64,000 bases of DNA, taken from contig NC_135901.1 of NCBI RefSeq assembly GCF_964194155.1, positions 36,580,001 through 36,644,000 of the forward strand, given 5' to 3'. Below are positions 14,011 to 27,610 of the stretch, piece by piece. The translations under genes and the position numbers were made by a program. Numbering within the stretch: position 1 is the stretch's first letter; the number at the start of each line of letters is the position of its first letter. This DNA is from Cetorhinus maximus. Its lineage: Eukaryota. Below the pieces are notes generated by a model. It was given only the letters and a program-made list of their open reading frames with translations. It did not search any database and was not told the origin of the DNA.

Positions 14011-15121
14011 GCCCAATTTTACAGCAGCGGATCTCAAACAGAGGGTCGCGATTCCCGGTGAGGTGGGGGGCTGAGGAATTGGGGCTGTGAGCTCCGAGGC
14101 AGCAATGGGGGATGTGGAGCAGAGACTCAGCCCAGACAGTCCTGCCATCGGGTTCGAGGCTCCAGGACACGTGCATTTCTTTTCCTGCCAGTGGTCCAGG
14201 TGTCGAGAGAATGAGGTTCGAGGCCCCATCACTGACTCCAGCATAAAGGTCAGTGAATAAATGACATCGCATCCCCCATTCTGTCTGTCACAACTCTTCC
14301 CCACCCCCTTCTTAGCCCTTCTCAATGCTTCCCTCCCCCCTCACAACTCTTACACCCCCTGTTCTCCCAATTACCCGGTCTCATTATGGGGTCTGTGTAC
14401 CTGGAGAGACAACAGGAAACCTGCCTGATGGGAGGTCACACAGCAACTTAGAGGAAGACTTGAGTTCAGGCGTAAGACAGTAGAACGTCAGTGATAGTTT
14501 GGCCTGGTGGGCTAGTGGAAGGAAGGGAAGCAGCAGAGGCAGCTGATTAGATTGTCTAAATTATTTTTATTCATTCATGGAATGTGGGCATCACTGACTA
14601 GGCCAGCATTTATTGCCCATCCCTAATTGCTCTTGAGAAGGTAGTGAACTGTCTTCTTGAGCAGCTGCAGTCCATGTGGTGTAGGTACACCCAAAGTGCT
14701 GTTAGAGAGGGAATACCAGGATTTTGACCCAGCGTTAGTGAAGGAACGGCAATATATTTCCAAGTCAGGATGGTGTGTGACTTGGAGGGGAACTTTCAGG
14801 TGCTGGTGTTCACATGGATCTGCTGCCCTTGTCCTTCTAGATGGTAGTGATCCTGGGTTTGGAAAGTTCTCTGAAAGAAGCACCATGAACTCCTCACACT
14901 TGTTGTTGGAGGTGAGGATGGAGGAGGCAGGGGCGAGGGAGAGCCCTTCAAATGGAACCAACAGAGATGTTTAAAAGATTCAACACACACTGTGTTTAAC
15001 AAAAAACTGATATATTTAACTTCATCCAGAATATTAGGAGTCGATGTACATCAGCAGAAACAGACCCCAAAGGACATGGTTCAGTCTGGATGTGATTAAC
15101 AGCAAAATCCAATCGCTACAG

Positions 15122-16327
15122 TTACTTGTGAACACGCTGGTGTCTCAGCAGATGGGATGAGGTAGTGAATCGCTTCCCACAATTAGAGCAGATGAACGGC
15201 CTCTCCCCAGTGTGAATTCGTTGGTGAACGGTGAGCTCAAATGATGTCTTGAATCCTGTCCCACACTGAGAGCACCTGAAGGGTCTCTCTTCAGTGTGAA
15301 CACGTTGATGGGACATCAGGTTCCCGGAACTTTTATAGCACGTCCCACAGTCTGGGCATTTATAAGGTCTCTCATCAGTCTGAACTCGCTGGTGAGTCAG
15401 CAATTGAGATGACTGAATGAATCCCTTCCCACACTGGGAGCAGGTGAACGGTTTCTCGTCAGTATGAACACGTTGATGGTACATCAGATTCCAAGAACTT
15501 TTATAGCACTTCCCACAGTCTGGGCATTTAAAAGGTCTCTCCCTCGTGTGAACTCACTGGTGTGACTGCAGGTGGGATGACTGAATGAATTCCATCCCAC
15601 ACTCAGAGCAGGTGAAGGGCCTCTCTCCAGTGTGAATTCGCTGGTGCACAGTGAGCTGAGATGATGTCTTGAACCCAGTCCCACAGTGAGAGCACCTGAA
15701 TGGTCTCTCGTCAGTGTGAACTCGTTGATGGCACATTAGTTCCCTGGAACTTTTATAGCACTTCCCACAACCTGGGCATTTGAAAAGTCTCTCCTCAGTG
15801 TGAACTTGCTGATGTGTCAGCAGATGGGATAACTGAATGAATCCCTTTCCACACTGGGAGCAGGTGAACGGCCTCTCCCCAGTGTGACTGTGCTGGTGTA
15901 CAGTGAGATCAGATGATGTCTTGAACCCAGTCTCACAGTGAGAGCACCTGAACGTCCTCTCATCAGTGTGAACACGTTGATGGAACATGAGTTCCCCAGA
16001 ACTTTTATAGCACTTCCCACAGTCTGGGCATTTAAAAGGCCTCTCATCGGTGTGAACTCGCTGGTGTTTCCGCAGGTTGGATGACTGAGTGAATCCATTA
16101 CCACATGTGGAGCAGGTGAATGGCCTCTCCCCAGTGTGACTGCACTGATGCTTTTCCAGGTCAGATGGGTGATTGAATCCCTTCCCACAGTCCCCACATT
16201 TCCATGGTTTCTCCCCATTGTGACTGCGTTTATGTTTAGACAGGCCAGATGTTTGGCTGAAGCCTCATCCACACAGAGAACATGTGTACGGTTTCTCCCC
16301 ACTGTGAACGGTGCTTTTTCCTTCCAT
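15122..16327 (-). pseudogene. 14-finger C2H2 ZNF with two nonsense codons and no frameshift
   Basis: 1206-nt frame from ATG (16327) to TAA (15122). In-frame TGA at 16265-16267 and 15554-15556, where paralogs have CGA (Arg). Confidence 0.88.
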
Positions 16328-16719
16328 GTTCAAAATCCGATGATATTCAGGTTACGATAAATTGGGCGACTCCGTCAGATCCTGATGTGATGTCTGGTTT
16401 CAGTTTCCCGACTGCAAATCCTCCCCTTCTAACACCCTGTAAAATTGATTTAAAACAGAAAAAAGGGAGTGAGAGAGAACCCACAAAAACACAAAGGCAG
16501 GTTGTGAAACTGAGCTGAATGAATCTGGTAATTTGTGGGGCTGGCACTAGGAAAAAGTTACCATGAAAACTGCTGGATTGTCATAAAAACCCAACTGGTT
16601 CACTAATGTCCTTCAGGAAAGGGAACCTGCCACCCCATCTGGGCCTACACAAGACTCTGGCCTCTAGGGGAGAAAATAGAGAGAGAGAGAGAGGGAGAGA
16701 GGGGGAGAGGTGGCAGAGT

Positions 16720-17470
16720 CGCTCTCCTTGATAACTGTCTGAGGCTGAACCAGGCTGTTCACAACCATGGTGAAATATTTCACCCCAAGATGAGCTTCCA
16801 ACCACATATCCACCTCATCACCTATTTCCACCTCAGTAACATCGCCCGACTCCAGCCCAGTCTCAGCTCATCTGCTGCTGAAACTCTCATCCATTCCTTT
16901 ATTCCCTCTAGACTTAACTATCCTAACACACTCCCGGCCGGTCTCCCACATTCAACCTCCCTGTAATCTTGAGGTCATCCAAAACTCTGCTGCCCATGTG
17001 CTTACTCGCACCAAGTCTTGTTCACCCATCACCCCTGTGCTCACTGACTTACAAATGCTCCGGGATAAGGAGAACCCCATTTTCAAAATTCTCATCCTTG
17101 TTTTCAAATTCATCCATGGTCTCTCCCTCCCTATCTCTGTAATCTCCTCCAGCCTCACAACCCTCCCAGATATCTACACTTCTCTAATTCCGACATTCTG
17201 AGCATTCCCAATTTTAATTCCTCCACCTTTAGTGGCCGCGTCTTCAGCTGCCAAGACCATGAATTCTGGAATTTCCTCCATAAACCTCTCCACCTCACTT
17301 TCTTCCTTTAAGATAATCCTTAAAATTTACCTTTTCAACTACACATTTGTTAATCTGCCCTGATATCTCTATCTGCGGTTCGTTCTCAAATGTTTCCTTA
17401 TAACATTCCGGTGAAACATCTTGGAACATTCTGTTACACAAAAGGTGCTACAGAAATACAAATTATTGTT
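16720..17470 (+). mobile_element. L2 3' fragment in ZNF intron; paralogs at 24050-24690 (-) and 50235-50730 (+)
   Basis: LRLNQ.VHN..IF.PKMSFQPHI..ITKTAYFHL.NIA, an L2 post-RT region. Confidence 0.75.
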
Positions 17471-25439: not shown

Positions 25440-26306
25440 ATGGAGGGAAAAAGCACCATTCACAGTGGGGAGAAATCGTACATGTGTTCTGTGTGTGGAC
25501 GAGGCTTCAGCCGATCATCTGACCTGTCAAAACATAAATGCAGAGACAACAGGGAGAAACCATGGAAATGTGGAGACTGTGGAATGGGATTCAATTACCC
25601 GTCTGAACTGGAAACTCATCGGCACAGTCACACCGGAGAGAGGCCATTCACCTGCTCCATGTGTGGGAAACGATTCACTTGTTCATCCCATCTGCTAACA
25701 CACCAGCGAGAAACTGTGGAGAAACCATTTACCTGCTCCATGTGTGGGAAGGGATTCACTCAGCCATTCAACTTGCTGAAACATGAGTGACTTCACACTG
25801 TGGAGAGACCGTTCACCTGCTCCACGTGTGGGAAAGGATTTACCCAGACATCTGACCTGCTGGCACACCAGCGAGTTCACACTGGGGAGAGACCATTCAT
25901 CTGCTCAGTGTGTGGGAAGGGATTCACTCAGTCAACTAACCTGCTGAAACACCAGCGAATTCACACTGGGGAGAGACCGTTTTAATGCTCAGACTGCATG
26001 AAGTGCTATAAAATTTCCGGGGAACTGATGTCCCATCAACGTGTTCACACTGACGAGAGACCGTTCAGGTGCTCTCACTGCGGAACTGGGTTCAGGTGGT
26101 CATCTCAACTCACTGTACACCAGCGCATTCACAATGGGGAGAGGCCGTTCACCTGCCCTGCATGTGGGAAGGGATTCACTCAGTTACCCAACCTGTTGAC
26201 ACACCAGTGAGTTCACACTGGAGAGAGACGGTTCATCTGCTCCGAGTGTGGGAAGGGATTTACTCAGTTATCCCACCTGCTGAGACACCAGCGAATTCAC
26301 AACTGA
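25440..26306 (+). pseudogene. C2H2 ZNF pseudogene, about 10 fingers
   Basis: ORF pieces 25434-25790, 25800-25985 and 25998-26210 are separated by stops. Acceptor AG at 25329-25330; AATAAA near 26420. Confidence 0.88.
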
Positions 26307-26464
26307 CTGCAGTGATTGGATTTTGCTGTTAATCACATCATGGACTGAACCATGTTGACTGGGGTCTGTTTCTACTAATGTTAATAACCTCCAACCCAGT
26401 TATAGCCGTTAATATTCTGAATAAAGTCAAATAAATCAGCTTTGTGTTAAACATACAAATTAGT

Positions 26465-27610
26465 TCCTTTTGAAGTGCTCTCTCTCTCCCCGTCTCCTCC
26501 ATCCTCACCTCCAACAACAAGTGTGTGGAGCTCATGGAGCTACTTTGTCACTAAGATTGAGACAATCTGATCAGCTGCCTCTGTTGCTTCCCTCCCTTCC
26601 ACTAGCCCACCAGGACAAACTGTCTCTAAAGATCCCCCTTGTCTGAACCCTGAACCCACATCTTTCTTTAGTTTCGCTCCCATTTCCTCTCATACCACCT
26701 TCATGCTCATCTTGTCCATGAGACCCAGCTCCTGCACAATTGAGCCTATTCCCACTAAACTGTTGGTCACCCAACCTCCCCATGTTCGCTGAGATTGTCA
26801 ATGGTTCTCTCTCTTCAGTTACTGTCCCTCTCTCCTTCAAATCTGACATCATCAAGCCCTCATCAATAAACAAACCTTTGGCCTTGTCCTTGCAAACTGC
26901 TGTCCCATCTCCAACCTTCCTTTCCTCTCCAAACTCCTCAAACATGTTCACACCTCCCAAATACGTGCCCATCTTTCCCAGAACTCCCTGTTTGAATTCC
27001 TCCAATCAGGTTTCTGCCCCTGCCACTGTACTGAAATAGCTCTGATCAAAGCCACTAATGACATCTTATGTGACTGTGACAAAGGTAAACTATCTCTTCT
27101 CATCCTTCTCGATCTGTCTGCAGCCTTTGACAAGGTTGACGACACCATTCTTCTCCAACACCTCTCCGCTGTCGTCCAGCTGGGTGGGGCTGCTCCCTCC
27201 TGGTTCCATTCTTCTCTATCTAACCATTGCCAGTGAATTACTTGTAATGTCTTCCCTTCCCACTCCCACAGTTACCTCTGGTATCCCCAAAGGATCCAGC
27301 CTTGGCCTCTTTTTATTTCTCATCAACATGCTCCCCACAACGACATCATCTGAAAACACAGCATCAGTTAACACATGTACACTGTCAGTGTCCAGCTCTA
27401 TCTCACCACCACCTCTCTCCACTTTTATTATATTATCAGACTGTTTGTCTGATTTTCAATGGTGAATGTGCAGAAATTTCCTCCAATTAAATATTGGGAA
27501 GACTGAAGCCATTGTTTTCATTCCCGAGATACCAACTCGATTCCTCTCCCTGGCAACTGTCTGAGACTAAACCAGACTTTTTGCACAAGTGATGTCAGGT
27601 TTGACCCCGA
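26465..27610 (+). mobile_element. Decayed L2 LINE
   Basis: LLDLSAAFD-like and GIPKGS RT motifs. Starts at the same junction behind the ZNF as at 9960. Confidence 0.85.

Follow-up and report, generated by a model that had tools for sequence, protein, structure and literature searches.

Two broken ZNF cassettes of Cetorhinus maximus set back to back around Penelope arms of different subfamilies: a candidate rearrangement junction

The window analysed here is a stretch of 64,000 nucleotides from the 4.0 Gb genome of Cetorhinus maximus (C24:36580001-36644000, C24 being the chromosome that bears it) and contains two ZNF cassettes set back to back around a head-to-head pair of Penelope arms. The left cassette (L) lies on the reverse strand and the right one (R) on the forward strand, and both have, from the centre outward, a 5' module, intron blocks, a conserved acceptor block and a ZNF exon. 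The Penelope arms mirror each other over 21105-21688 and 21703-22347, the 5' modules are found at 20757-21104 and 22348-22693, and the mirrored intron blocks at 20301-20607 and 22959-23253, 17974-18585 and 23252-23865 (block A), and 17096-17636 (block B of L) and 23885-24430. Acceptor blocks (16332-16660 and 25107-25435) and exons (15122-16327 and 25440-26306) are mirrored too. The L exon encodes 14 C2H2 fingers with two in-frame stops, the R exon has three in-frame stops, and the two finger arrays are unlike in finger number and recognition residues. The usual upstream region is gone from both modules. A comparator cassette (C) of a third lineage is located at 33813-37152 on the reverse strand, with its upstream region starting at 37153.

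The inverted symmetry is centred at about 21689-21702. In ungapped comparison L and R are 95.3% identical in the Penelope arms (46 gap columns besides), 91.6% in the 5' modules and 88.2% (block A), 80.8% (block B) and 84.0% in the three intron blocks, with 4454 of 6833 bases alignable in the left arm of the mirror and 4032 of 4868 in the right. The original prediction for this locus, made from the letters alone, had described a palindrome of about 11.7 kb. The inverted symmetry of arms, modules, introns, acceptors and exons holds, but at 81-95% identity and partial alignment the mirror is real but loose and not a palindrome in the usual sense. The supposed 14-nt spacer at the axis is actually Penelope sequence that continues the left arm and not foreign DNA. 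Counted per 50 nt from the junctions outward, the mismatches number 2, 2, 4, 3, 4 and 4, resembling comparisons with paralogs from outside the window; the profile is flat in these steps, with no rise of identity toward the axis, and no near-identity tract was found between the arms. Nor are they each other's closest relatives, since the modules are 91.6% (L-R), 91.4% (L-C) and 91.6% (R-C) identical and the intron block 88.2, 90.3 and 88.2% in the same order, so that the expected closeness of the two arms as against the 33-37 kb copy was not borne out.

A first look for the 5' module gave 1762 candidates, the scored ones being on C24 and small contigs. Divergent pairs are a normal layout in this array, with five within 15 kb (7-14 kb apart) among the first 97 listed C24 sites. 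A tree was built with 14 cassettes (17 were found and three were omitted for want of a full module), in which L groups with siblings at C24:36.38 and 37.98 Mb (support 100/99) and R with a sibling at C24:38.13 Mb (96/96), while a clade of L plus R is rejected (p-AU 9e-6). Fold-back duplication and homogenisation, both proposed in the original prediction, are out because each arm is as close to C as to the other and the tree rejects their union. L is 93.6% identical to the 36.38 Mb sibling over 5.3 kb and 92.9% to that at 37.98 Mb over 5.6 kb, CR1 included (92.7-93.6% within block A). Block A of R is 93.8% identical to the 38.13 Mb sibling, and the collinear block 22346-32156 matches the unfused sibling block C24:38121214-38130961 at 90-93%. 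All three siblings have the target site intact, the upstream region present and another partner 7-12 kb off. From these alignments the two arms appear as older related paralogs from separate lineages and not as a self-copy. On the downstream side of L, window 8698-15719 is collinear (87-91%, inverted) with C24:36406032-36413510, so this neighbourhood has its own sibling block.

The CR1-like insertion (18585-20300, forward strand) is confined to the left arm, as had been predicted, with no right counterpart. It is found at an identical junction in three paralogs outside the window, namely the two siblings of L and a third CR1-bearing relative at C24:36.51 Mb, and for this reason it was inherited with the L lineage and not inserted after a duplication. 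We keep the label CR1 from the original prediction and for the endonuclease- and reverse transcriptase (RT)-like fragments visible in it; the two CR1-like fragments tested had no match in Pfam.

Both Penelope arms are 5'-truncated at the centre. The left one (21105-21703, reverse strand) is tail-less, is 15 nt longer than its counterpart, takes in the stretch taken for a spacer and encodes the final residues of the parent Penelope open reading frame (ORF), the last GIY-YIG codons. It belongs to subfamily A near the centre and is B-like at some outer sites. The right arm (21703-22347, forward strand) is of subfamily B and is the only one with a tail, of 34 nt; the seam between both has a 1-nt overlap. 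Of 78 Penelope loci, selected for their best similarity to one arm, 27 are head-to-head pairs. An exact target duplication flanks 22 of these 27; it measures 11-16 bp, and in 12 cases its length is 14 bp. One tailed and one tail-less arm are found in 23 of the 24 other pairs longer than 600 bp, so a head-to-head layout with a tail on one arm is the usual form in which this family inserts. The window pair departs from a single insertion of this kind, as it has no target-site duplication, its flanks are inverted homologues and its arms disagree at 16 of 20 scorable diagnostic sites, that is, they belong to different subfamilies. The other pairs were concordant in 23 of 23 informative cases, with no more than two differing sites each, although some of them have just 4-7 scorable sites, several sites are clustered, and the count excludes two short pairs and three long ones whose pairing is doubtful. 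The flanks come from two loci with unrearranged relatives, as in non-allelic recombination mediated by a transposable element (TE).

A frame of the parent, 887 amino acids in locus L209, has an RVT_1 match (E 1.6e-5) below the Pfam cut-off and a YIG motif at its C-terminus, which we take to be that of a GIY-YIG domain. The ORF, together with the pseudo-long terminal repeat (pLTR) and its tail, points to an endonuclease-bearing Penelope-like element. For a hammerhead ribozyme in the pLTR there was no Rfam match, and the folding z-score was 0.23; the Rfam hits were sub-threshold hairpin and snoRNA matches. The right arm has an 8-nt deletion at window 21779 that is also present in an unrelated long arm at C24:42.57 Mb, probably recurrent by microhomology. 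In L202:2954-4555 there is an inverted pair with both arms tailed and without duplication. The sequence on its left side is met again in front of a Penelope end near C24:36.71 Mb, which may point to a preferred site in a different repeat.

Both window arms abut their modules at one and the same bond, ACTAACTCTGTTA^GTTTG. By pattern searches a Penelope 3' end was found at this bond in 18 loci of C24, the window arms included, and in one more locus four bases off, while 435 exact sites are intact, a count that takes in duplicated copies of the site. The loci fall into 11 different structures with no fewer than 6 different junction sequences, two of the structures having been copied to 4 and 5 loci, which suggests that the bond was used in 6-11 independent Penelope events. 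Two flanking control intervals of 31 bonds had no Penelope junction on C24. At the 22 duplication-flanked loci the nick context is GTT in 11 of 44 and GGT in 6 of 44 cases, and the target bond supplies a GTT and a GGT 14 nt apart. With 47,714 exact Penelope 3' ends, the rough expectation at the bond is 0.003 events under uniform insertion, or 0.4 once the trinucleotide bias is taken into account; against 6-11 events, this indicates that more than the trinucleotide is at work, and open promoter chromatin is our guess for an added cause. The normal upstream flank is retained at 15 of the 16 other bond loci (the exception is L129), and the window is the sole bond locus with this module on both sides. 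An older perfect palindrome with a Penelope inserted in its middle was also considered and rejected, being unseen in 29 other loci, 28 of which run on into normal upstream sequence. Likewise, inheritance of L or R from another filled site was rejected, as L066, L069, L072 and L129 differ in junction or subfamily, and a pair of tandem neighbours flipped by inversion, for which tandem relatives at C24:36.51-36.52 Mb gave a model, was discarded since closer siblings lie elsewhere and no reciprocal junction was found.

Other insertions in the module were also recorded. A second recurrent Penelope target corresponds to window 22596-22609 and received three different insertions (C24:36554097-36554930, 43327115-43327339 and 36357899-36358932), the last without the module front, which suggests an insertion-linked deletion. 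At the hot bond, the short copies (L071, L073-L075, L080 and the L076 family) share a 5' boundary at reference 3203-3204, and those of L081 and L130 have it at 3198. The hot-bond insertion in L250/L289 (C24:55651963 onward) has at its far end an inverted internal Penelope fragment and an unrelated flank, with neither duplication nor upstream region, and is another rearrangement junction.

The clearest precedent was found at C24:52.876-52.881 Mb, where an inverted Penelope ending 4 nt from the hot bond lies between a head-to-head pair. The native long arm of this insertion is kept in four siblings, three of them seen whole with both arms and the tandem block; a 15-bp duplication could be read in one sibling, and another paralog has the site empty. 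The long arm of the 52.88 Mb copy and that of C371 share 45 departures from the siblings in the last 465 nt, where they change over to another subtype, and both end at targets different from those of the sibling insertions. Compared in this way, the 52.88 Mb copy is demonstrably the product of a Penelope-Penelope exchange by which a divergent pair arose from a tandem block and the right gene was severed from its upstream sequence. This gene is broken, and in 2 of the 6 copies of the block the boundary falls inside Penelope. The crossover lies at least about 465 nt away from the 3' end; no copy of the donor subtype was among the loci compared. The second chimeric long arm, in C371:156864-161464, adjoins by eye a tRNA-like stretch instead of a ZNF module.

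We favour, with a probability of roughly 0.55, that the window contains a Penelope-mediated rearrangement junction in which different copies at the same base were joined by homologous recombination, fusing L and R back to back. The Penelope endonuclease would favour the bond because of a nick before GTT with a partner nick 14 nt away before GGT, and two cassettes of different lineages would each have gained a Penelope copy of its own, inserted at an identical base of the module. One insertion would have been of the common inverted type, its outward arm forming a direct repeat with the copy of the other cassette. The exchange may have taken place after insertion or through nascent complementary DNA (cDNA) annealing to a resident copy, within the conserved ORF end beside the centre, where A and B look alike; in that case the inverted seam at the centre would be the original one of the inverted-type insertion. 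By the fusion L and R would have come to stand back to back and lost their upstream regions, and both genes may have decayed afterwards or earlier. Directly observed are the separate lineages of L and R, the two subfamilies of the arms, the single recurrent bond, the loss of the upstream regions and the stops in each exon, while the steps from inverted insertion to fusion are inferred. The part of the original prediction that saw recombination at a Penelope insertion as the source of the head-to-head pair is supported. Its proposal of a route to ZNF expansion finds no example here, and our best reading is that existing cassettes were re-paired and dropped their upstream regions, with no gene copied.

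Several points weigh against recombination between Penelope copies at this locus. The crossover cannot be placed, as the candidate zones of about 100 nt (left) and 115 nt (right) contain no diagnostic sites, so that chimerism in the window is inferred and not seen. The left arm is a mosaic, with an A centre and some outer sites that are B-like, and may stem from a naturally recombinant lineage or from a further exchange. The tailed and tail-less arms fit a single event equally well (23/24 pairs), near-symmetric seams are found in 3 of 24 pairs, each with a filler of 12-14 nt as against the 1-nt overlap of the window, and the loci compared are not a random sample. Neither an intermediate nor the reciprocal product was found by pattern searches in the one assembly. 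All three unfused L siblings are broken too, so the decay of the window genes cannot be attributed to their fusion; on the R side, the two siblings looked at have open frames. Fused and unfused copies could not be told apart by the CpG content of their modules. Finally, no listed contig of four public runs bridged position 21703, which is no evidence either way as the species of the runs is uncertain and their pieces were cut.

The alternative that survives best, unlikely and still to be taken seriously, is that of two synchronous insertions, the bond being nicked in both cassettes at once, one end primed on an A RNA and the other on a B RNA, and the cDNAs end-joined at the centre as a one-step deletion or inversion bridge. 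Both window junctions are ordinary priming junctions, the 1-nt overlap at the seam would suit end-joining, and the overlapping divergences of A and B pairs mean that both subfamilies may have been co-active. The Penelope protein of anole cuts and extends both strands and is a predicted dimer (PMC11167929), and bridges in tumours join two inverted 5'-truncated L1 elements (bioRxiv 2024.08.27.596794). This bridge would nevertheless bring together two subfamilies where the other 23 of 23 pairs have a single one, the nearest case in the array (52.88 Mb) is a recombination chimera, and the reciprocal upstream-upstream junction was not found within a 40-nt gap. Much less probable is a stem-loop, in which two cassettes facing each other held an inverted copy each, these copies annealed, and end-joining removed the loop between them; the near-symmetric seam and the divergent pairs at 7-14 kb mentioned above would allow it, but L and R were probably no original pair, since their unfused siblings are partnered differently, and a comparable case was not found. 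We consider equally improbable an assembly misjoin at the Penelope seam, in spite of the repetitive array and of the four runs in which no listed contig, all of uncertain species, crossed it, given that artefacts from fold-back reads yield identical arms while those of the window differ by 5-19%, and that the seam is a unique A|B join with a repeat of just 1.2 kb. The poorest is a fold-back at an inverted Penelope that duplicated one cassette, with paralog conversion later erasing the identity: the flanks on the two sides are homologous and share their end point to the base, but the recurrent Penelope site accounts for this end point with no fold-back needed, all blocks keep to separate lineages, down to the indels, the CR1 and the finger arrays (over 5.3-5.6 kb in L and 9.8 kb in R), and the two 3' ends differ.

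Inverted-pLTR Penelope insertions with an optional tail are known from Pen2/Pen2a of Adineta vaga (PMC3846280) and PAc of anole (PMC11167929). Like them, the window pair has head-to-head 5'-truncated arms with the 3' ends outward, one tail of 30-40 nt and a parent ORF with RT and GIY-YIG; unlike them, it has no duplication, its flanks are inverted homologous gene modules and its arms are of different subfamilies. The nick context, GTT/GGT here, is reported as ATT for PAc, in a paper that describes the choice and resolution of integration sites by Penelope-like elements as little understood (PMC11167929). As in the L1 bridges, two distinct inverted 5'-truncated elements with their own endonuclease sites are joined by their 5' ends and link distant breakpoints, although those are somatic, human and proven at the read level, and ours is a Penelope junction in one assembly (bioRxiv 2024.08.27.596794). 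Young KRAB-ZNF clusters of mouse also have chimeric elements at rearrangement points in a fast-turnover cluster, with contraction as well as expansion possible (PMC11952569), but here the agent is Penelope-like instead of an endogenous retrovirus (ERV) or a long interspersed element (LINE), and the insertions recur at one bond of the module. The concentration of hundreds of ZNF genes in one TE-rich chromosome region recalls the FiNZ-ZNF array of zebrafish Chr 4q (PMC10547256); the same study finds TE-driven duplication insufficient to account for the ZNF-TE correlation across species, and the word 'shark' is absent from its main text. Penelope has been connected with inversions in one paper as speculation only (PMC6278893). 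Among the papers listed by the literature searches, neither a base-precise Penelope hot spot nor Penelope recombination in ZNF clusters was the subject of any title or abstract start.

It is conceivable, though on balance doubtful, that Penelope targets single bonds in the 5' module shared across a chromosome-scale ZNF array and that recombination among copies inserted at one and the same position repeatedly exchanges upstream regions and partners between cassettes and sets the boundaries of duplications and deletions. If true, ZNF genes would be born and lost along a recombination grid made by a transposon and precise to the base. The module, with its 435 or more copies and possibly 6-11 independent events at one bond, is a ready substrate for tests of target choice, and the 52.88 Mb chimera with its intact siblings provides sequence-level evidence of Penelope exchange reshuffling ZNF cassettes, the role proposed for ERVs and LINEs in the mouse clusters. 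The window junction itself is probably a dead end, with two broken genes and their upstream regions gone. Exchange here reshuffles and removes and copies no gene.

The rest of the window contains further repeats. A second inverted paralogous pair (38324-42962 and 60717 onward) is 87% identical over 4.7 kb, and positions 27-3194 are directly repeated at 46365-49512 with 91.7% identity. Tandem repeats are found at 30554-31083 (about 70 bp) and 32885-33131 (63 bp), the latter expanded at C24:36508555-36509247. At 44253-44445 there is an older, short inverted pair of Penelope ends.

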